From an uncultured Acidobacteriota bacterium (GTDB lineage: Bacteria > Acidobacteriota > Vicinamibacteria > Vicinamibacterales > CAVVIG01): 64,000 nt of DNA. Of this stretch, positions 2,851 to 55,727 are shown in pieces; within the stretch, counting starts at the first letter, position 1, and each line of letters opens with the position of its first letter. The notes under the pieces were generated by a model. That model had not been told where the DNA came from and did not search any database. It worked only from the letters and a program-made list of their open reading frames with translations. Made by a program: the position numbers and the translations under genes. Where the stretch lies: the NCBI GenBank assembly GCA_963734375.1, contig CAVTHG010000004.1, positions 165,363 to 229,362 of the forward strand, read 5' to 3'.

Positions 2851-3101
2851 TCACCCGGCGAGGGCGACGGGGCTCGACGATGCAGCCCGGCTGCTCCAGT
2901 CATGACGCCGGATGAACCGCCCTGACGACGTCATCGATGAGGAACTTCTCGCGGACGAGCGACTGGAGCGCGCGCTCGCAGAGCTCCTCGGAGAGGTTCC
3001 ACAGCCGCTGCGCCTGCCAGAAGGTCAGGCTCAACGCCGGCAGCTCGTGATACTCCATCCGGATCAACGTCCTCGTCTCTTCAAGCGCTACACGCTTCCA
3101 T
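2851..3101 (-). CDS. Small HTH-like protein absent from the ORF track (two apparent 1-nt indels); paralog of 27372-27623
   Basis: GGAGG RBS, then MEA(V)ALEETRTLIRMEYHELPALSLTFWQAQRLWNLSEELCERALQSLVREKFL..TSSGRF. Confidence 0.7.
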
Positions 3102-3120
3102 CGCGACCTCCTGCGAGCTC

Positions 3121-3174
3121 ATCGTAGCGGCGGCATGTGTCGAGGCGATGTCGATCGGTCGTCGATGACGTAAC
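3121..3174 (-). promoter_or_regulatory. Pho-box-type promoter of the small HTH-like gene
   Basis: Half-sites GTTAC 3174, GACGA 3163, GACAT 3152, GACAC 3141; -10 TACGAT at 3126. Confidence 0.65.
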
Positions 3175-3181
3175 GCACAGC

Positions 3182-3322
3182 ATGACGAACCCCTTCCTCA
3201 TCATCGAGCGCGACAACTTCGAGGGCGACGCGGCGATGTTCAAAAATCTTCCTCGTCGATTTCGATGACGTCGACGCCAGCGGGGCGGGAAAGACGACGA
3301 TCATCACGGCCGCGGCCGCTAG
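3182..3322 (+). pseudogene. Possible remnant of an esterase-like-activity-of-phytase family gene
   Basis: FLIIERDNFEGDAAMFK/IFLVDFDDVD resembles the family's LVIERD..G....FKKIY.ID segment; short and frameshifted. Confidence 0.4.
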
Positions 3323-3475
3323 AGCGGCTTCCTTTTGTACGGAGGGTCCGGCTTGAGCCGGTCGGCCTCGGCGCCGCGCTCGCGCGGATCCTGTATCGCC
3401 GGGTGTGAGCGCGATACACGGACAGAGGTGTGGCTTGCTGTCGTTGGTCAACGCTGATCGCCCCCGTGAACCGTC

Positions 3476-3529
3476 GTTACGGCGTTGTGACCGCGCGGAC
3501 ATCGAGCCGTGATGTTCCGCTTCTAGCAT
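3476..3529 (+). promoter_or_regulatory. Pho-box-type promoter of phoD
   Basis: GTTAC 3476, GTGAC 3487, GACAT 3498, GTGAT 3509; -10 TAGCAT 3524. Confidence 0.7.
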
Positions 3530-3592
3530 TCCTCGCTGGCACGCCGCGAGCGTCAATGAATGGCGCGCGGCCACTGAACGCGAGGACCGCCC

Positions 3593-5183
3593 ATGACCTC
3601 CAGCAAGACGCAGGCGTCACTGATCGATCGCCGCCGTTTCCTCGAATACACCTGGTGCGGCGTCGGCGTGAGCCTCTCGCTCGCGCTGCTGCCCGGACAC
3701 GAAATCCTCGCGTCGCCGCGATTCGGCGACGATCCCTTCACGCTCGGCGTCGCCTCGGGCGATCCGACCGACGACGGCATCGTGCTCTGGACGCGGCTCG
3801 CGCCCGAGCCTGCCAATCCCGATGCGCTCGGCCATTCGTTCGTGCCGGTCCGCTGGCGTGTTGCGACCGACAGCCGCATGCGCCATGTCGTCGCCCGCGG
3901 AAGCGCGGTCGCGGCGCCGCAGCTCGCACACTCGGTGCACGTCGAGGTGAACGGCCTGCAGCCGGGGCGCGACTACTTCTATCAGTTCGATGCGCGCAGC
4001 GAGGAGAGCCGTGTCGGCCACTTCCGTACTGCGCCGCGCGAGCACGAGATGCTGCGCGAGACGCGGTTCGCCTTCGTCACCTGCCAGGACTGGCCGAGCG
4101 GCTACTACATCGCCTATCGCGACATGCTCCAGCACGATCTCGATCTGGTGTTTCACCTCGGCGACTACACCTACGAGTACGCGATCGAGGGGACGACGGG
4201 CCGCGGCATCGTCGTGCCCGAAGGCTTCGGCGCCGAGACCCGCGATCTCGCGGACCTATCGGCTGCGGCACACGCTGCACAAGCTGGATCCGGATCTCCA
4301 GGCGGCGCACGCGAAGTTTCCGTTCGCCGTCATCTGGGACGATCACGAGGTGGCCAACGACTACTCGGGCCTGGCGCCCGAGTTCGCGTCGCCGTCGCCG
4401 GAGTTCACGGCGCGCCGGGCGGCGGCGTATCAGGCGTGGTACGAGCACATGCCGGTCCGGCTGAAGGTTGCGCTGAACCCGCGGCCCGGGCTGCAGATCT
4501 ACCGCCGCCTGCGTTACGGCGCGCTCGCCGAGTTCACGATGCTCGACGATCGGCAGTACCGCTCCGACAACCCGTGCGGCGACGGCGAGTCGCTGCGCTG
4601 CGACGCGGCGTTGAACGGCCGCTACACGTTCCTCGGCCGCGAGCAGGAGCAGTGGGTGGCGAAGGGCTTCGCCCGTTCGTCGGCGCGCTGGAACATCGTC
4701 GCGCAGCAGCTCCTGATCGCACAGCTCGAGCACGCGACCATCCGCGACAACTGGTTCTGGAATGACGCGTGGGACGGCTATCCGCGGGCGCGACAGCGGC
4801 TGCTGGAGGACGTGGCCGGAAGCCGGCTGCAGAACCCGGTCTTCCTCACGGGCGACTGGCACTCGACGTTCGTGAACGACTTGAAGCTCGACTTCAACAA
4901 TCCAGCGTCGCGGACCATCGCCACCGAATTCGTGACGCCGGCAATCACCACCGGCGGCGATGGGACGCCGTACGGCCCGTACTACGGGCCGATGATCCCG
5001 TTCAACCCGCACATCAAGTACTACGAAGGCGATCGCCGCGGCTACTTCAAGGCGACGCTCACGCCGCAGCGGATGCGCGTCGATTTGCGCTTCATGACGA
5101 CGGTGGAGAGCCAGGCTGGCGTCGGCTACACGGAAGGATCGTGGGTGGTCCACGACGGCCGGCCTGGCGCCGAGCGCGCCTGA
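3593..5183 (+). CDS. phoD: Alkaline phosphatase D family, Tat-exported (frameshift ~4255)
   Basis: DRRRFL signal; FTLGVASGDP, HLGDYTYE, WDDHEVAND, DAWDGY, LTGDWH. Confidence 0.93.
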
Positions 5184-5232
5184 GCGACGCGCGACGGCCC
5201 CGTCCGATGACGGCGCCGGCCTCTTTTTGATC

Positions 5233-5264
5233 GTCATGCCGATGACACGCGAGCCGATCACAAT
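5233..5264 (+). promoter_or_regulatory. Pho-box-type promoter of the STAS gene
   Basis: GTCAT 5233, GACAC 5244; -10-like CACAAT 5259. Confidence 0.55.
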
Positions 5265-5273
5265 GGATCCCGC

Positions 5274-5624
5274 ATGCACATCCGCACCCGGTCGATCAAT
5301 CCGGCGCTGGCGATTCTCGAGCTGAACGGGCGGCTGACCGCCGAAAGCGGTTCAGCGCTTTGCGACGCAGTGTCGGCCGTCCTCGCCGAGGGAGGCCGTC
5401 ACCTGATCCTGAACTTGAGCGGCGTTCGCGCGCTGGATGCGTCGGGCCTCGGGGGGCTGGCGGCCACGCTGCGTCTGGTGCGGGAGGTCGGCGGCGAGCT
5501 GAAGGTGGTGGCCGGCAGCGCCGCCATCAACGAGCTCCTGCGCCGGACGCACCTCAGCGTCGCTCTCCCCGCCGTCGCCAGCGAGGCTGAGGCGATCGCG
5601 AGCTTCGAAACTGCGAAGGTCTGA
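5274..5624 (+). CDS. STAS domain protein (anti-sigma antagonist-like)
   Basis: LILNLSGVRALDASGLGGL motif with conserved Ser. Confidence 0.88.
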   Translation: MHIRTRSINPALAILELNGRLTAESGSALCDAVSAVLAEGGRHLILNLSGVRALDASGLGGLAATLRLVREVGGELKVVAGSAAINELLRRTHLSVALPAVASEAEAIASFETAKV

Positions 5625-5628
5625 CGGC

Positions 5629-5660
5629 GTCACACGATGGTTACACCAGCTCGCTATCCT
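5629..5660 (+). promoter_or_regulatory. Pho-box-type promoter
   Basis: GTCAC 5629, GTTAC 5640; -10 TATCCT 5655. Confidence 0.6.
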
Positions 5661-5669
5661 GATTCGCGC

Positions 5670-5867
5670 ATGCTCTGGAACGCCGCGCGAACGTGGGCGG
5701 CGATTCGTCAGCGCAACCGCCAGCGCCCGCTGGCCGCGCCGCTCACGGTGCGATGGCTGGCGCCGCAACGCCTGCTCCCGATCGGCACGCTGCGCCAGGT
5801 ACGAGAGAGGCAGTCGACGGCGACGAGCGATCGATCAGCGGGCCGCTCGGGCAGACAGTCCTCCTGA
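5670..5867 (+). CDS. Small basic hypothetical protein (65 aa)
   Basis: ATG immediately after the predicted promoter; MLWNAARTWAAIRQRNRQ...; no recognised family. Confidence 0.4.
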   Translation: MLWNAARTWAAIRQRNRQRPLAAPLTVRWLAPQRLLPIGTLRQVRERQSTATSDRSAGRSGRQSS

Positions 5868-5892
5868 TCGGCGATCAGGGCACCCACCAAAA

Positions 5893-5946
5893 CTTACAGC
5901 GACGTCACCCGGCCGCGGCCGGGGTGTTACACCAGCCGGATATCCT
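5893..5946 (+). promoter_or_regulatory. Pho-box-type promoter of the GT2-PHP operon
   Basis: CTTAC 5893, GTCAC 5904, GTTAC 5926; -10 TATCCT 5941. Confidence 0.7.
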
Positions 5947-5969
5947 GCGCTCGTGATCAACACGACCGC

Positions 5970-6707
5970 ATGGCGTTGACGATTGCCGCGGTCGTCTGCG
6001 CGTATAACGAAAGCCGTCTCCTGTCGGGTTGCCTCTATTCGCTGCGCGCGCAGACGCGGCCGCCCGACGAGATCCTGGTCGTCAACAACGCCAGCACCGA
6101 CGCGACGGGCGAGGTGGCGCGCGCGATTCCGGGGATTCGCGTGCTCGAGGAACCGGCGAAAGGGCTGGTCGTCGCGCGCGAAACGGCGCGGCTTGCGGCG
6201 CGCGCCGACATCATCGCCTACATGGACGCCGACTGCCGCGCGCCGATCACGTGGCTCGAACGGATCGAAGCGCAGTTCTCCGGCGCGCGGGCGCCGCTGG
6301 CGGTCACCGGACCGTATCGCTTCTACGACTGGGACTGGAGCGGCCGCGCGCTCATCCGCGCCTACGACCTCGTCGTCGCGCCCGCCACCCATGCGTTCGT
6401 GCACCACGGCCTCGGGATCGGCGCGATTCTCTACGGCGGAAATTTCGCGGTGCAGAGCGACGCGCTGGCGCGCATCGGCGGGTTCGATCGGCGGATCGAG
6501 TTTCACGGCGAGGACACGAACCTGGGGCGGCGGCTGACCACGATCGGGCGCGTCGCCTTGTGCCCCGACTGCTGGGTCTGGACCTCGGCGCGCCGCTATC
6601 GGGCGATGGGCAAGGGCGCGGTCTTCCGCGTCTACGTGCGGAACTTCTGGTCGGAGATTCTGCGGCACCGTCCGGCGGACGAGCACCATCTCGACGTGAG
6701 GGCCTGA
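5970..6707 (+). CDS. Glycosyltransferase family 2
   Basis: VCAYNE, NNASTD, DADC (DxD), GGFD, GEDT, TSARR. Confidence 0.9.
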   Translation: MALTIAAVVCAYNESRLLSGCLYSLRAQTRPPDEILVVNNASTDATGEVARAIPGIRVLEEPAKGLVVARETARLAARADIIAYMDADCRAPITWLERIEAQFSGARAPLAVTGPYRFYDWDWSGRALIRAYDLVVAPATHAFVHHGLGIGAILYGGNFAVQSDALARIGGFDRRIEFHGEDTNLGRRLTTIGRVALCPDCWVWTSARRYRAMGKGAVFRVYVRNFWSEILRHRPADEHHLDVRA

Positions 6708-6726: not shown

Positions 6727-7473
6727 ATGCCGGGGTACGAACCGTTTCTGCTCTGCGACTTCCACGTCCACACGCGGTGGAGCGATGGGCGTCTGTCGCT
6801 GCGCGAGGTCGTCGATCTCTACGGCAAGACCGGACGCTTCGACGTCATCGCGATCACCGATCACATCCTGATGAAGAAGGATCTGCTGGCGCGGGTCGCG
6901 CGGATGGCGACGCTCGGCCGGCGCGACTTCTCGGTCACCGAGGCGCGGTTCGAGGCGTATCTCGCCGACATCGCCGCCGAGGCGAAGCGTGCGCGCCGGC
7001 TCTATGATCTGCTGGTCGTCCCCGGCGCCGAGATCACGCAGAACCACATCCGCAGCAGGAAGAACTCGCACATCATCGCGCTGGACATCAAGGAGTTCAT
7101 CAGCGCCGATCAGCCGGCCGAGGACATCCTGCGTGCGATCCGCGCGCAGGGCGCGCTCAGCATCGCCTGCCACCCGCATCACCGGACGACGAGGCGCGTC
7201 GAAGTCGGCACCTGCTATCTCTGGGACAACCGCAAGCGGGTCGTCGACCTGGTGGACGTGTGGGAAGCGGCGAACCGCGACGATCTCTTCTCGGTGACGA
7301 GCCTGAAGCACTACCCGTACATCGCCAACAGCGACTTCCACAAGCCGAAGCACCTCCACTCGTGGAAGACGCTGGTGCGCTCGGAGAAGACGTGGGAGGC
7401 GGTGGCGGCGGCGCTGCGATCGAACGTCGACGTGGCGTTGACGCTGTATCGCAACGGATCGTGGGCGGCGTAG
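6727..7473 (+). CDS. PHP-domain metal-dependent phosphoesterase
   Basis: DFHVHTRWSDG, AITDH, GAE, HP, NSDFH. Confidence 0.9.
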   Translation: MPGYEPFLLCDFHVHTRWSDGRLSLREVVDLYGKTGRFDVIAITDHILMKKDLLARVARMATLGRRDFSVTEARFEAYLADIAAEAKRARRLYDLLVVPGAEITQNHIRSRKNSHIIALDIKEFISADQPAEDILRAIRAQGALSIACHPHHRTTRRVEVGTCYLWDNRKRVVDLVDVWEAANRDDLFSVTSLKHYPYIANSDFHKPKHLHSWKTLVRSEKTWEAVAAALRSNVDVALTLYRNGSWAA

Positions 7474-50319: not shown

Positions 50320-51405
50320 TTAATCCCCGTCGGCCGATTTGAAAGTGAGGGTGACGCCGAGCGTACTGGCCACTTCGGTTTTCATCATGATCTCGAGCGC
50401 GCGGCACTCGTCGTGCGCGCGTTTGACCGCACGCTCGACCGCCTCGTTCCCTTCCTCGAGCGGGCCGTCGATCGCCTTCACCGCGTCGATCGCCTTCTGG
50501 AACTGCGCCTCGATCCGGCGCGCGGCCGGCGCTTTCAGCTGGCGCAGGTAATCGTCGATGCCAGCGCCCTCTCCGCCGAAGAACACCGCGCGCGCGCCGA
50601 GGAGCAGCGCGAGCACGCCCGCCTGCGACGTGCCGCTCGGCCCGCCCTCGACCAGCTCCGAGCGCGCATGCTGCTCGGTCCGCTTGTCGACCGCCAGCAG
50701 AAGCCGCCCCTGCGCGCCCACCTCAATCGCGTTGAGGATGTCGTTCACGAGCAGGTTGAGCTGATCCTGCCCGCCGCCGGCAAACGCTGCCGCGAACCCC
50801 TGCGATCCCTTCCACGCGTTCTCGACCTGGCGGGTCTGCTTCAGCAGCTCTTTCACCAGCGCCTGAAAGTACTTCCGCTGCCGATCGCCTTGCGGCCCGG
50901 AGAACGCGGCGACACGTTGCGCCTCGTTCTGCCTGGTGTCGAACAGCAGGATCTCCAGCGCCGACAGGCCGACCGCGTTCGCGCCCAGCTCCTGCAGGTA
51001 GGTGTCGTCGAATGGCCGGTTTGCACGGAGCACGCGGTCGACGCTCTGCCGCCGGGTCGGCCAGAACTGGATGCGTCCATAGACGCCAAGGTCGGCGATC
51101 GGCCCGTGCGTGAACGCCTGCGTCCGCCGCCACGCGAACAGCATCTCCCTCCACGCCTTCTGGGCGCTTTCGAGCGACGTCGCGCTCGGCGTCGTCGTCA
51201 ACGCATCGGCGGCGGCGGCAAAGTCGGCGCTGCGTGCGGCCAGCTGCGAGTAGCCAGGCAGCAGCACGCTCTTCGCGATGTTGTCGAGCGCGGCCTGCTT
51301 CGAGACCGCTGACGCGCTCCTGGTGTCCGCCAGCACCAGCCGATGCGCGAGGCCGAAGGCCGCGAACATCGCGAGCGTGGCAATGAGAGAAACCGTCTTC
51401 TTCAT
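50320..51405 (-). CDS. Imelysin family protein
   Basis: AQKAW, GP, FWP, GLSALEILLF, C-terminal DGD. Confidence 0.85.
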   Translation of the reverse strand: MKKTVSLIATLAMFAAFGLAHRLVLADTRSASAVSKQAALDNIAKSVLLPGYSQLAARSADFAAAADALTTTPSATSLESAQKAWREMLFAWRRTQAFTHGPIADLGVYGRIQFWPTRRQSVDRVLRANRPFDDTYLQELGANAVGLSALEILLFDTRQNEAQRVAAFSGPQGDRQRKYFQALVKELLKQTRQVENAWKGSQGFAAAFAGGGQDQLNLLVNDILNAIEVGAQGRLLLAVDKRTEQHARSELVEGGPSGTSQAGVLALLLGARAVFFGGEGAGIDDYLRQLKAPAARRIEAQFQKAIDAVKAIDGPLEEGNEAVERAVKRAHDECRALEIMMKTEVASTLGVTLTFKSADGD

Positions 51406-51422
51406 CTGCAGGGTTCCGATGT

Positions 51423-52799
51423 TCAGAGCGAGTTCAGGAACGCGATCAGGGCCGCCCGATCGCGCCCCGCCATCGAGCGGAATGTCTCGCGCGACGTCGC
51501 GGCTTCGCCGCCGTGCCAGAGGATCGCCTCGCTGGCGTTGCGCGCGCGGCCGTCGTGCAGCAGAAACGTATGGCCGTTCACCTTGCCGACCAGGCCCAGC
51601 CCCCACAGCGGCGGCGTGCGCCACTCGGTTCCCGACGCGGCGAATGTCGGCCGTCCATCCGCAAGGCCGCTGCCCATGTCGTGCAGCAGCAGATCGGTGA
51701 AGGCGTGGATCGTCTGGTTCGCGAACTCGGGCTGCTCGGGAAACGATCCGGTGCGCGCCGCCGGAAGATGGCAGGCGTCGCACCGCGCCGCGGCGAACAG
51801 TTCACGCCCGCGCCCGGCCAGCGGATCGTCAGCGGTGCGCGCGGCAGGAACGGCAAGGCTGCGCGCGTAGAGCGCCACTGCGTCGAGGATCTTTTGGCTC
51901 GCCTCGGGTTCAATGCGCGCAGGCCGCAGTGCCGCGGCTTCCTGGCGCGCCGTGTGGTTCTCGCTCTGGAACAACGACGACGTGATCCCGATGTCGCCGA
52001 GGAAGGCGCCAGCCGTCTGCTGCAGCACCGACGGCTGCTCAGCCTTCCAGCCAAAGCGTCCGATCGCGGTTCGGCCGGTCACCTGATCCCAGACCACGTT
52101 CGTGCGGCCCGACACGCCATCGTGGTTCGCATCGTCCGGATCGGCGAGACGCTGCAGGGTGGCCGCGGGAATGGCTTCGAGCAGGCCGAGGCCGATGACC
52201 GCCGGCGACACGCGCGGCGAAACGAGCAGCGGCCCGTCGATCGGACCATAGCCCGGGTTGGCAATCCGATAGGTCGGCCGCCGCAGCGAGAACGGTTCGC
52301 CGTCGCCAAACGTGCCGGCGATCTCGTCGTAGCTGACGAAGACGTCGGCTTCGCGCGGAACGCCGGGAACCGATTGCCCCTGGATCTGATCGCCGTAGAC
52401 GGGGTGCGGCCGCGGCCCGCCGTGCTCGTCTTCGCCGGCGACGCTGATGCGGACCAGCATGCTGTCCATCGGCTCGCCGTCCGCGGGCGGACGGCCGCGT
52501 CCATCCTTGAAGTGGCATCCGGAGCACGACCGCGCGTTGAAGAGCGGGCCGAGGCCGTCGCGCGCGGCGACCGACGCCGGCGCCACGATCCAGTTCTGGT
52601 TGAAGAACGAGTTGCCGACGAAGAACGACGACCGCCGCTCTTCCGGCAGGTTGCGCGCCGGCAGCGAGAAGGCGTTGCGCGAGGTGTCGAAGACGGTGCC
52701 GTCGCCACCCGACAGCGTTTCTTCGCTCGACGCTGCGGCCCAGACGCCGAGCGTCACTGATAGCGCCGAGATCAGCGTGGACCAGGTTCTGCAGCGCAT
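51423..52799 (-). CDS. Di-heme oxidoreductase family protein (DHOR/DUF1111)
   Basis: DGLGPLFNARSCSGCH, GRFGWKA, CDACH, DLLLHDMG, WRTPPLWG, LHDGRA. Confidence 0.92.
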   Translation of the reverse strand: MRCRTWSTLISALSVTLGVWAAASSEETLSGGDGTVFDTSRNAFSLPARNLPEERRSSFFVGNSFFNQNWIVAPASVAARDGLGPLFNARSCSGCHFKDGRGRPPADGEPMDSMLVRISVAGEDEHGGPRPHPVYGDQIQGQSVPGVPREADVFVSYDEIAGTFGDGEPFSLRRPTYRIANPGYGPIDGPLLVSPRVSPAVIGLGLLEAIPAATLQRLADPDDANHDGVSGRTNVVWDQVTGRTAIGRFGWKAEQPSVLQQTAGAFLGDIGITSSLFQSENHTARQEAAALRPARIEPEASQKILDAVALYARSLAVPAARTADDPLAGRGRELFAAARCDACHLPAARTGSFPEQPEFANQTIHAFTDLLLHDMGSGLADGRPTFAASGTEWRTPPLWGLGLVGKVNGHTFLLHDGRARNASEAILWHGGEAATSRETFRSMAGRDRAALIAFLNSL

Positions 52800-52802
52800 G
52801 GT

Positions 52803-54008
52803 TCAGAAATTCAGCTTCAACCCGAGCGCCGCGCCGGCGTGTGCGATCGAGTCGGCCTGCGCACGCAGCGCGACGATGAGCTTCTTGACCGCGATCCGGC
52901 CTGGCGCCTTGTCGGTGCCCTGAATCGCGACGTCGAACGGCGGCGGCACCGCGGCCGCCGCGGCGGTGCTCGCTTCGATCTGCCGGCCGAGCGTGCCCGC
53001 CAGTGCCGGGTCGACACGCGCCAGCAGATCGCGGACGCCGGCGCCCTCCACGCGCTCGCCGCCGACGCGCACGTAGCGGCCGAGCCAGACGTTCTCGATG
53101 CCGAGCACGTCGTGGACGATGTCGAGATGCGTGGTGTCGCTGAAGCAGGAGTGTTCGTCCTCCTGCTCCTTGGTTTCGTACGCGACCGTGAGCCGTTCGC
53201 CGGCGAGCTCCGATCCGCTGAGGATGCCGGCGCCCTTGAGGATGCACGCCAGCGCTTCGTCCGGCGGCATCGCCAGGAAGCGCTCGCGGTAGTTGCCCGG
53301 CGTACCCGGCGCCCACTCGCCAGCGACCTGCTCGAGATGCGTGACGAGCAGCTGCGACGCCGTCCGCAGGTACTCGCGCCGGCGGTTCGCGTGCGGCGCC
53401 TTGCCGTCGACGTAGTCGGCGTAGGTGCGCCGGCCCGGCCCTTCCTCGTTCAGGTCCTGGCCCCAGAGCAGGAACTCGATCGCATGGAAGCCGGTGGTGA
53501 TGTTCTTCTCGCCCCCTTTTTCGTTCAGCGACGCGATCAGGGCGGCGTCGATCGTCGGATACGTGTCCGGCTGGTTGATGACGCCCGCGTCGGGCTCGCC
53601 GTCAACGTAGTCGATGAGGTTCTCGTCGATCGGCCAGGAGTTGATCAGCCCTTCGACCGCCTCGATCGGACCGTCGTAGAAGCGGAAGGCTTCGGTCTGC
53701 ACGTACGGGACGCGGGCGGCGTTCCACGCCGTTCGCGCCCGCTGCAGCGACTCGTCGGTCGGCGCTTCGGTGAATGCGTCGATGGCGGCCGCGAGCGCAC
53801 GCGCGCCAGCCAGCGCATCGACATAGCCGGCGTGAGCGATCGCAGCGTACTGCGCGATGACCTCGTGCTTGAGTGTCGTCAACGCGCCTGAGCCGCTCGA
53901 TGCCGGAACCGGCGCTGTGGACAGCAGAGTCAGGAGGACGCCGGCCACAACAATCCGCGCGGCGTGTGAATGAAAACGAGGAAACCTGCGGGATGAGGAC
54001 CGGCGCAT
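52803..54008 (-). CDS. Imelysin/IrpA-like protein
   Basis: QTEAFRF, INSWPIDE, TGFHAIEFLLWGQD (HxxE), EDEHSCFSD. Confidence 0.9.
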   Translation of the reverse strand: MRRSSSRRFPRFHSHAARIVVAGVLLTLLSTAPVPASSGSGALTTLKHEVIAQYAAIAHAGYVDALAGARALAAAIDAFTEAPTDESLQRARTAWNAARVPYVQTEAFRFYDGPIEAVEGLINSWPIDENLIDYVDGEPDAGVINQPDTYPTIDAALIASLNEKGGEKNITTGFHAIEFLLWGQDLNEEGPGRRTYADYVDGKAPHANRRREYLRTASQLLVTHLEQVAGEWAPGTPGNYRERFLAMPPDEALACILKGAGILSGSELAGERLTVAYETKEQEDEHSCFSDTTHLDIVHDVLGIENVWLGRYVRVGGERVEGAGVRDLLARVDPALAGTLGRQIEASTAAAAAVPPPFDVAIQGTDKAPGRIAVKKLIVALRAQADSIAHAGAALGLKLNF

Positions 54009-54018
54009 CAGCCACCGG

Positions 54019-54072
54019 ACGTTAACAGGCAGGTGTAGCGAAGGCGTGTCGGGCACGTAACGGGTGTGTTAA
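54019..54072 (-). promoter_or_regulatory. Pho-box-type promoter of the imelysin operon
   Basis: TTAAC 54072, GTTAC 54061, GACAC 54050, GCTAC 54039; -10 TAACGT 54024. Confidence 0.65.
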
Positions 54073-54084
54073 TGGGAAAGGAGA

Positions 54085-54201
54085 GTAGGAGGTTTAAGAG
54101 GTCAGGAGGTCCCAGAGGTCAGGAGGTCCAGAGGAGGCTAAGAAATCAGGAGGCCGAGATCAGGAGTTTCCTCCTGATCTCCTGAGCCTCCTAATCTCCT
54201 G
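54085..54201. repeat. CAGGAG / CTCCTG inverted array
   Basis: gtcaggagg units followed by ctcctgat units. Confidence 0.7.
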
Positions 54202-54206
54202 GCGCG

Positions 54207-55727
54207 CTAGCGCTTCCAGCCCCAGGGGAACCAATCGCCGTCGCGGCGCTCGCGGCCGTGGCGGCGAACTTCGAAGCCGGTGATCTTCAGCAGCGCGCCG
54301 ACGCCGGTGGCGCGGTGCTGCAGGCTGACGTACAGCGTGTCGCCGGAGCCGTTGAAGATGATCCCGGTGGGCTCAGACGACGTATCGCGCAGCGACGCGA
54401 TCCGCACGCACCCATCGCTCTGCACATCGTCGTCGTCGCCGTCGGGAAGGCAGAAGAGGATGTCGTTGCCGCGCAGTTCGGTGGTGCCATCAGCCTTGAC
54501 GACTTCGACTTCGCCGTCCTCGGTCAGCGCGAAGTTGCCGCTGTGCGGCTGGAAGGCGATGTTGTCGAAGAAATTGAACTGCGGGTTGCCGGCAACGACG
54601 CGGCGGACGGTCGGAATCGCGCCGCTCGGCGCGGCCGCATCCGCCTCGTCGGTGAGGCACATCACCTCGCCGTAGATGGCGCCGGTTTCTTCGGCGCTGC
54701 CGCCGCCGTTCGACATCCGGCCCGTGTCGGTCCAGCAGACGCGCACTTCATCGTTCGACAGCGCGATCGGATCGATGTCCATGTCTTCCGGCCGGTAATA
54801 GCCGGTGAACCGCAGCTGCGCCTGCGCCGTGCGCAGCGGGATGTTGCCGTTGGCATCCGTAATCGCGGCCTCGTCGATCGCGGTCCAGACGCCCTGGCCG
54901 ATCTCGGTGCCCTGTCCGTGGTCGCCGGCCGAGCCGACGCGCAGGCCGAAGAGCTGGCCTGACACGAACGGCGAGGAGCCGGGCACGGTGATGATGCCGG
55001 CGCCCGCATAGGGGATGTCCGGCACGAACTTGTAGATGCCGCCGCCCGGGTTTCCGCCGCCGGGGCGCAGCTCGTCGCCGAAGATGATCGTCCCGTCGGG
55101 CAGTACCGGGTTGCCTTCGAACGCCAGCTGGCCCAGCGCCTTGCGCTTGACGACCCGTGCGTCGGTGGTGATGCCGGCGGCACGGTTGGTGACGGCGATC
55201 GGCGAGGTGATGCTGAGCGGGTTCATGATCTCGTAGGTGCCGCCGTCGGTCGATTCTTCGGCGACGGTCAGGCTGCCCCACGGCGTCCGGCGGATCGGAT
55301 CGCAGGCGACGATGCCGGTGAGGATCGTGCTCGCGTTGGACGCGGGCGGCAGCGAGAGATCGACGCGCTGTACCGCCGGGTTGGAGCTGCTCTCATCGCA
55401 CACGAACAAGTGGGTCGGGTGCCGATCGTCCGGCCAGAGCACGATTTGATCGGTCGAGAAATGCACGGCCGATGACACCAGCGAGACACGCAGGCCGCGC
55501 GCGACGGACAGCGCCTGCGTGCTGTCGGCGGCGGTATAGGGGCCGAGCGCGCTCCGGCTCAGCGAATCGGCGCCGAGCAGCTTTTCCGCGCGATCGTTCA
55601 GCTCGCGCTGCACGCGCAAGCCGAAGTCGCCACCGTCTTCGTCCGCAATCAGCCGCGAGCCGCCGATGCCGATTGCGGCCGCCGCCGCAAGCGCGATCGC
55701 GCCCGAAATCCAGACAGCTTTTTTCAT
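54207..55727 (-). CDS. PhoX-like (DUF839) secreted phosphatase family protein
   Basis: CD...TPWGSLTVAEE, ALGQLAFEG, RPED, DNI, SEPTG, SLQH; Sec-type signal. Confidence 0.75.
   Translation of the reverse strand: MKKAVWISGAIALAAAAAIGIGGSRLIADEDGGDFGLRVQRELNDRAEKLLGADSLSRSALGPYTAADSTQALSVARGLRVSLVSSAVHFSTDQIVLWPDDRHPTHLFVCDESSSNPAVQRVDLSLPPASNASTILTGIVACDPIRRTPWGSLTVAEESTDGGTYEIMNPLSITSPIAVTNRAAGITTDARVVKRKALGQLAFEGNPVLPDGTIIFGDELRPGGGNPGGGIYKFVPDIPYAGAGIITVPGSSPFVSGQLFGLRVGSAGDHGQGTEIGQGVWTAIDEAAITDANGNIPLRTAQAQLRFTGYYRPEDMDIDPIALSNDEVRVCWTDTGRMSNGGGSAEETGAIYGEVMCLTDEADAAAPSGAIPTVRRVVAGNPQFNFFDNIAFQPHSGNFALTEDGEVEVVKADGTTELRGNDILFCLPDGDDDDVQSDGCVRIASLRDTSSEPTGIIFNGSGDTLYVSLQHRATGVGALLKITGFEVRRHGRERRDGDWFPWGWKR

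Follow-up and report, generated by a model that had tools for sequence, protein, structure and literature searches.

The question raised by this locus is whether the short direct repeats in front of several of its genes, among them a phoD-type phosphatase gene, are the phosphate-starvation operators (Pho boxes) of a poorly studied bacterial lineage. The window, i.e., the whole stretch of 64,000 nt analysed here (G000:C4:165363-229362 of the assembly), belongs to a Vicinamibacterales (Acidobacteriota) genome of 7.98 Mb in 16 contigs with a G+C content of 67.5%. A first, sequence-only reading had noted G(T/A)NAC-type half-sites recurring every 11 bp, followed exactly 15 bp on by a -10-like hexamer, at five promoters close together and at two more distant ones, and had taken them for PhoB-type promoters of a phosphate islet with new regulon members. 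The motif, its geometry, its enrichment and conservation and its link to pstS are established below. Judged from the DNA, the boxes are very probably Pho boxes, the predicted operators of an OmpR-family response regulator of the PhoB/PhoP/RegX3 type.

All seven sites exist, with half-sites, 11-bp steps and hexamer offset as first described; the offset of 15 is counted from the first base of the last unit to the first base of the hexamer. The layout at 54019 and 55788 is likewise confirmed, with four-unit boxes on the minus strand followed by TAACGT and TAGATT, respectively. Four units are present at five sites (small gene, phoD, GT2 with a weak third unit, imelysin and phoX-like), and two units at the STAS and orf65 sites. 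The layout consists of two to four 11-bp direct-repeat units, head to tail, with TTAAC or GTAAC as distal and GA(C/T)AC, GAAAC or GTTAC as proximal units, and lacks a -35 element; no sigma-70 -35/-10 pair was found in 2900-6100. The sites and their genes are as follows.

2900..3067, minus strand: small gene (HTH55) for an Acidobacteriota-specific protein with sub-threshold MarR/winged-helix likeness; 3' end frame-shifted in the assembly.
3174-3131 (box) and 3126-3121 (-10, TACGAT), minus strand: small-gene promoter; GTTAC, GACGA, GACAT and GACAC starting at 3174, 3163, 3152 and 3141.
3466..3529, plus strand: phoD promoter; GTTAC, GTGAC, GACAT and GTGAT starting at 3476, 3487, 3498 and 3509, -10 TAGCAT at 3524-3529, and an additional GTGAA at 3466 with a 10-bp step.
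3593..5183, plus strand: phoD, PhoD-like phosphatase (Pfam PhoD_N, PhoD), split in two frames by one extra base near 4249-4251.
5233..5264, plus strand: STAS site, two units; GTCAT at 5233, GACAC at 5244, CACAAT at 5259.
5274..5624, plus strand: STAS-domain (anti-sigma-antagonist-like) gene (Pfam STAS; NCBIfam ant_ant_sig below cut-off).
5629..5660, plus strand: orf65 site, two units; GTCAC(AC) at 5629, GTTAC(AC) at 5640, TATCCT at 5655.
5670-5867, plus strand: orf65, a doubtful open reading frame (ORF) of 65 codons without family match.
5893..5946, plus strand: promoter of the GT2-PHP operon; CTTAC at 5893, GTCAC at 5904, weak GCGGC at 5915, GTTAC at 5926, TATCCT at 5941-5946.
5970-6707, plus strand: GT2 glycosyltransferase (Pfam, NCBIfam).
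6727-7473, plus strand: PHP-domain metallohydrolase (Pfam, NCBIfam).
50320-53996, minus strand: imelysin / di-haem oxidoreductase / imelysin operon (Pfam, imelysin/DHOR).
54072-54029 (box) and 54024-54019 (-10, TAACGT), minus strand: promoter of the imelysin operon, four units.
54209-55727, minus strand: PhoX-like phosphatase gene (Pfam PhoX).
55841-55798 (box) and 55793-55788 (-10, TAGATT), minus strand: promoter of the phoX-like gene, four units.

Two matrices were used to follow the motif beyond the window. The first was built only from the seven window sites. The second, trained on the pstS promoters of 17 relatives, has 44 columns and contains neither a -10 term nor anything from the genome studied. 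In this genome pstS lies on contig 11 behind the gene of a phosphate-selective porin (oprP). The seven-site matrix recovers a box at the oprP-pstS promoter both here and in relatives, as had been predicted for pstS; our own box, just 5' of the porin, reads GTAACACGGAA TTTACATGGAC GTAACGGTGCC GAAGCGACCGC N4 TAGTGT. Among 22 pstS loci (our own and those of 21 relatives that represent different genera in its family and order) the same matrix finds a four-unit array at the equivalent place in 18, ours included, and three of the four misses have too little upstream DNA. TAnnnT stands at offset 15 in 16 of the 22 loci, or in 13 if the hexamer is not used in the choice of the site. The consensus of these promoters runs TTTAC/TTAAC, GTAACAC, GAAGCAC, GA(C/T)ACAC, followed by N4 and TAnnnT.

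The pstS-trained matrix was scanned over 15.96 million positions, which represent the whole genome studied. Its best match is the promoter of an OmpR-type, PhoB/RegX3-like regulator (C11:117505-118203), followed by the imelysin site of the window (26.6 bits), the promoter of a TonB-receptor-like gene and, in fourth place, our own pstS promoter; a TA...T hexamer stands at offset 15 in all four. The small-gene site (4.5 bits), the GT2 site, the phoD site (3.9 bits) and the phoX-like site are equalled or surpassed by 151, 168, 181 and 249 positions, respectively, so that five of the seven window sites fall within the top 249. Among the 244 positions that score at least 3, TAnnnT occurs at offset 15 in 10, compared with 0-5 at other offsets, and the count of 5 belongs to offset 26, one unit beyond 15. 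A score of at least 2.7 together with TAnnnT leaves 12 matches in the genome, which correspond to 11 promoters and are all intergenic (12/12). Five of these matches are in the window, the phoD promoter among them, six on contig 11 at 118-148 kb and one before another TonB-receptor-like gene. The term islet seems apt, as the 64-kb window holds 5 of the 11 best promoters of the genome. Distances to the next gene are rough, and some are wrong at missed genes, because the gene caller, which is based on the G+C content of third codon positions (GC3), covers only 66% of the genome.

Enrichment at the 11-bp period is also evident with the seven-site matrix, in counts that include the training sites. 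Four-unit arrays with a score of at least 16 have 19 noncoding-like matches at 11-bp spacing versus 0-8 at spacings 7-16, and with a score of at least 20 the numbers are 6 versus 0-2 elsewhere. The proposed control against shuffled DNA likewise came out in favour of the sites: matches to the pstS-trained matrix that also have TAnnnT number 6 in real noncoding-like DNA, whereas 20 dinucleotide shuffles average 0.15 and never exceed 1.

The layout is conserved at two further promoters besides that of pstS. Close relatives of the GT2 gene were found in 80 public Vicinamibacterales loci, 79 of which have upstream sequence; TAnnnT stands at offset 15 behind the best four-unit array in 67 of these 79. 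With the pstS-trained matrix 38 of these 67 promoters score at least 3 and 20 at least 10, values reached by 244 and 21 positions, respectively, of our own genome. At the promoters of orthologues of the regulator C11:117505-118203, box and TAnnnT at offset 15 are present in 52 of 53 rows (51 loci), with 12-36 bits. The pattern here is (G/T)TAACCCAnAn TTAACAnnnnn GA(C/T)ACnnnnnn GAAACnnnnnn N4 TAnnnT, with some 12 nt between the end of the hexamer and the start codon. In the genus Luteitalea (locus L069) the regulator promoter and the GT2 promoter both have the box; cultured strains of Luteitalea and of Vicinamibacter exist. What distinguishes a Pho box, namely direct repeats in at least two copies phased by 11 bp, a fixed position at the -10 without a -35, and presence at the pstS uptake operon, is therefore found at these loci: the first in the four-unit enrichment and at the pstS, GT2 and regulator loci, the second in the offset-15 spike, at the same loci and in the missing -35/-10 pairs of 2900-6100, the third in 18 of 22 loci.

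Variation between strains follows the same outline. All seven differences found at the small-gene promoter in a metagenome contig of a related strain, and both differences at the GT2 promoter in metagenome contigs, lie outside the unit cores and the -10. Near-identical pieces of phoD were present in one RNA library, which shows neither regulation nor a transcription start; starts, strands and levels cannot be read from RNA contigs, and the parts of the stretch that these leave uncovered are uninformative.

Two PhoB-like regulators are encoded in the genome, both on contig 11. The best model for C11:147094-147780 is PhoB (234.6 bits), and the gene is followed by that of a kinase with Cache-like/HAMP/PAS architecture, whose best models are PnpS and PhoR, below the family cut-offs. 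For C11:117505-118203 the best models are likewise PhoB; this gene is followed by a DUF6526 gene, not by a kinase, and is called the orphan in the following. With 234.6 and 217.9 bits both candidates stay below the cut-off of the PhoB equivalog (NCBIfam TIGR02154, 296.2 bits), and the closest solved structure for both is RegX3 (212 and 173 bits).

We infer that a PhoB-like regulator binds the boxes, that it activates the promoters and that phosphate is the signal. Under phosphate limitation the phosphorylated regulator would bind in tandem as dimers, all to the same face of the helix, would replace the contact normally made at the -35 and would recruit RNA polymerase. The targets predicted in the window, all well supported, are phoD, the small winged-helix-like gene, the GT2-PHP operon, the PhoX-like phosphatase and the imelysin/di-haem operon.

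Several observations weigh against the interpretation as Pho boxes. The unit matrix from the seven sites carries only 6.1 bits, and orthologous promoters are non-independent samples. With this matrix, the 11-bp spacing shows no enrichment of two-unit arrays compared with other spacings; a pair of units followed by TAnnnT is no more frequent at offset 15 than at off-register offsets, and the single-unit pattern GTTAC-N10-TAnnnT is as frequent as its controls (7 vs 1-7). A box-like site precedes only 1 of 11 phoD homologues of relatives, which are 42-52% identical and probably distant paralogues, and the orthologues of the PhoX-like gene have weak, partly similar repeats with TAnnnT at offset 15 in none of four. 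The pstB-phoU genes form a separate operon at 97.7-99.3 kb of contig 11, divergent from an arsR-type gene, and no convincing array was seen in the 117 bp before it, inspected by eye only; the box expected at phoU did not materialise. For the genes of the PhoB-like regulators the result is divided: the orphan has the best box of the genome, while the regulator-kinase operon has a weak site of its own (2.7 bits), and its promoters in relatives share no box, with TAnnnT in 2 of 27 usable promoters (from 30 loci) and mostly negative scores.

The boxes may be shared between the two PhoB-like regulators. This would refine the Pho-box interpretation, not replace it, and we consider it possible but less likely than not. 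The regulator C11:147094-147780 with its PhoR/PnpS-like kinase would sense phosphate and switch on the orphan, which is co-transcribed with DUF6526 and would drive a subset of promoters, e.g., those of the GT2 type with a proximal GTTACA. The existence of two PhoB/RegX3-like regulators is in favour of this division, as are the strong and conserved box of the orphan, its position beside GT2-PHP in 51 of 80 loci, and the lack of a conserved box at the kinase operon. In at least ten relatives the kinase gene shares a contig with pstS, at a distance of no more than about 15 kb. The proximal unit also differs, being GT(T/C)ACA at GT2 and GA(C/T)ACAC at pstS promoters. However, no site is assigned to either protein, and the GT2 promoters score highly with the pstS-trained matrix as well, in the proportions given above, so that one specificity is enough to account for them.

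A more elaborate version is a two-tier circuit, which we put forward with considerable doubt. A boxless, kinase-linked PhoB/RegX3-like pair would stand above the orphan regulator with its strongest box and co-transcribed DUF6526, and the orphan would be physically coupled to an order-wide, box-driven module of GT2, PHP and small protein. This module might serve an undescribed phosphate-starvation function, for instance to build a glycoconjugate free of phosphorus or to reuse one that is phosphorylated, and would have moved beside phoD in this genome with its boxes kept.

Improbable, in our view, is an OmpR-family regulator that responds to another signal, such as envelope or metal stress, with an incidental link to phosphate genes. 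The identity of the regulator depends on sub-threshold family scores, pstB-phoU has no box, and imelysin/di-haem and TonB-receptor-like genes are classically tied to iron uptake. Yet the oprP-pstS operon carries the box in 18 of 22 loci, and to our knowledge the pst operon is the core of every known Pho regulon. Two phosphatase genes have the box too, and the regulated cluster of the relatives consists of Ppx, CHAD, histidine phosphatase and pst genes.

Chance, i.e., a choice by eye among G(T/A)NAC pentamers common in DNA of 68% G+C, can be dismissed with near certainty despite the degenerate half-site and the two-unit and single-unit patterns that are not enriched: for the four-unit sites it is refuted by the offset-15 spike, the shuffles (0.15 vs 6 real), the intergenic position of 12 out of 12 matches, and a layout kept across dozens of genera at the three different promoters of pstS, GT2 and the regulator.

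The two-unit sites have to be regarded separately, since their class does not rise above chance, and sequence statistics on their own are thus not enough to validate the STAS and orf65 sites. The STAS site has the exact geometry, but it scores -29.3 with the pstS-trained matrix, its hexamer lacks the TA, and its gene is not linked to GT2 in the 80 related loci; for this site alone chance is the likeliest reading, contrary to what had been proposed. The orf65 site is equalled or surpassed by 8163 positions with the pstS-trained matrix, and it is the best site of the genome in the two-unit plus TAnnnT class (15.3 bits), a class that is not enriched. Its 22-nt core is 86% identical to the core of the GT2 promoter 286 bp downstream, and GTTACA-N9-TATCCT occurs at two places only in 8 Mb, the orf65 and GT2 promoters. 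The reading frame at 5670-5867 has an atypical G+C content of 0.67 at second codon positions and looks non-coding. It is plausible from these sequences that the orf65 site is a second, upstream promoter of GT2-PHP. An origin of the similarity by duplication was considered and rejected, as the repeat has only 22 nt and unrelated flanks.

At the imelysin operon a comparison of promoter footprints is impossible, because no orthologue was found at E<=1e-50 in 40 relatives.

The new regulon members first proposed hold for GT2-PHP and for the small winged-helix-like protein, and TonB-receptor-like genes join them on grounds of conservation and synteny; STAS drops out, and orf65 is plausible only. 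The PHP gene adjoins GT2, following it, in 71 of 80 loci. Neighbours of the pair are Ppx/GppA (25 loci), CHAD (34), histidine phosphatase (His_Phos_1, 29), DUF6526 (26), an OmpR-type regulator (39 by protein clustering, with an orthologue of the orphan in 51 of 80), a TonB-receptor-like gene (15), pstS (11) and pstC (12). This cluster of the relatives is the same as that at 113.8-130 kb of our contig 11, and in our genome GT2-PHP lies out of the cluster, beside phoD. In many relatives a homologue of the small gene comes immediately after PHP, and in one (L121) it precedes phoD; the regulatory company was therefore kept through rearrangement. The small gene has a G+C content of 0.64/0.38/0.89 at the three codon positions. 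Its protein resembles Pfam MarR_2 with an E value of about 0.01 only; its Atlas clusters are without family, and Pfam and NCBIfam yielded no function.

The main phosphate island of the genome (G000:C11:113800-148000) comprises Ppx, CHAD, a histidine phosphatase, DUF6526 with the orphan PhoB-like regulator, a CHAD-pyrophosphatase fusion and a TonB-receptor-like gene, and further oprP-pstS-pstCA, a GDPD gene, a second box-bearing TonB-receptor-like gene and the PhoB-like regulator with the PhoR-like kinase. No function was obtained from Pfam, NCBIfam or Atlas for a 364-aa gene at C11:125689-126783 and for the X protein. Next to the orphan regulator, at C11:119085-119140 on the minus strand, a four-unit site of 11.7 bits with TAGCTT at offset 15 precedes a 76-codon ORF without family. 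It lies about where relatives carry GT2-PHP and may therefore be a remnant of the ancestral arrangement.

The resemblance to the Pho box of Escherichia coli claimed at the outset is supported. That box is described as a set of tandem direct repeats with an 11-bp period located 10 bp upstream of a TAN3T -10 (PMC1906773; consensus in PMC3465305), and the boxes found here agree with it in period and in a distance of about 10 bp to a TAN3T -10. In both systems the repeats replace the -35, and the box is present at pstS and at the gene of a PhoB-like regulator (PMC1906773, PMC3465305). The units differ, being TTAAC, GTAAC, GAAAC and GA(C/T)AC here instead of CTGTCAT, four units are usual at the conserved promoters, and the linker is G+C-rich instead of A/T-rich. 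Our system further departs from that of E. coli in its separate, boxless pstB-phoU operon and in a regulator below the TIGR02154 cut-off. The box of the cyanobacterial SphR is described in PMC1906773 as three tandem 8-bp repeats (CTTAACCT) with 3-bp linkers. It shares with ours the 11-bp period, three or more units and the TTAAC core of the distal units, for example TTAACCCACAT TTAACAC at the regulator promoter, and differs by our proximal GA(C/T)AC or GAAAC units, by lineage and by regulator.

In the actual regulator proteins the likeness is with the SenX3-RegX3 system of Mycobacterium tuberculosis, as RegX3 is the closest solved structure to both candidates. RegX3 is described as the phosphate-responsive regulator of mycobacteria (bioRxiv 10.1101/400960).

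With the PhoP systems of Gram-positive bacteria the likeness is in the boxes and in the Cache-like/HAMP/PAS architecture of the kinase beside C11:147094-147780. PhoP boxes of Bacillus subtilis (TT(A/T/C)ACA repeats) and the direct-repeat units of Streptomyces PhoP are 11-bp-phased and often four in number. The 11-bp-phased direct repeats and a TTnACA-like core are shared with our boxes.

Specific to this lineage are the sequences of the units, the rule of four and the split arrangement of pst/phoU. A literature search, with subscription journals and supplements outside its reach, found no description of a Pho box in Acidobacteria. We regard the signal of a Pho-type regulon in this new lineage, predicted as it is from genome comparison, as real and well supported. 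The switch itself is known and its mechanism ordinary textbook matter, so that the value lies in the regulon map and in members of it that are uncharacterised, and no new principle is added. Among soil Acidobacteriota the Vicinamibacterales are an abundant order with few cultured members, and statements on phosphorus cycling in soil are usually based on nothing but gene counts. With a validated operator model, in which TAnnnT follows four 11-bp units at a constant distance, the genome sequence becomes a testable regulon. This predicted regulon comprises oprP-pstSCA, the PhoD and PhoX-like phosphatases, TonB-receptor-like genes and the PhoB-like regulator, and its most interesting member is the strongly conserved, uncharacterised GT2-PHP(-small protein) module.

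Some minor observations concern the assembly. The apparent frameshift in phoD is one extra base in this assembly, as a base is missing at 4249 or 4251 from the contigs of two DNA runs, which belong to two studies; the small gene is likewise shorter by one base at 2935/2936 in two DNA runs. Single-base insertions or deletions relative to short-read contigs were recorded at 4249-4251, 2935-2936, 3093 and 3461, and the porin gene at C11:126852-128025 is probably likewise split. Indels of this kind fit the completeness by marker genes, which is only 65% at a genome size of 8 Mb.

The small gene and phoD diverge from a region of 525 bp, which contains a terminator-like hairpin with a T-rich tail at 3314-3339 (plus strand), with no obvious plus-strand gene in front. 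Repeats of GATCAGGAGG / CCTCCTGATC are clustered in both orientations at 54085-54205, between the imelysin promoter and the phoX-like gene's end, and recur at 5860-5879. This 10-mer is present 137 times in the genome versus a rough expectation of about 16, nine of the copies being in the window, and looks like a small family of repeats similar to repetitive extragenic palindromes (REP-like).

Two further elements adjoin GT2 promoters. The 21-mer ATGCACGTGGGTATACCACGG, with up to two changes, follows the -10 at a distance of up to about 10 nt in 19 of the 80 loci (L081, L085, L086, L088, L093, L096, L098, L102, L104-L108, L113, L115-L118, L121), 41-158 nt before the GT2 start, and is absent from our own genome; it could be a hairpin (CGTGG-GTATA-CCACG), an operator or a leaderless mini-ORF (MHVGIPR). 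In many loci (L042-L051 and others) an ATG or GTG about 7-8 nt past the -10 begins a very short reading frame overlapping with the start codon of GT2, at our own GT2 in 5947-5972 of the window (GTGATCAACACGACCGCATGGCGTTGA), and this may represent a leaderless upstream mini-ORF or translational coupling.

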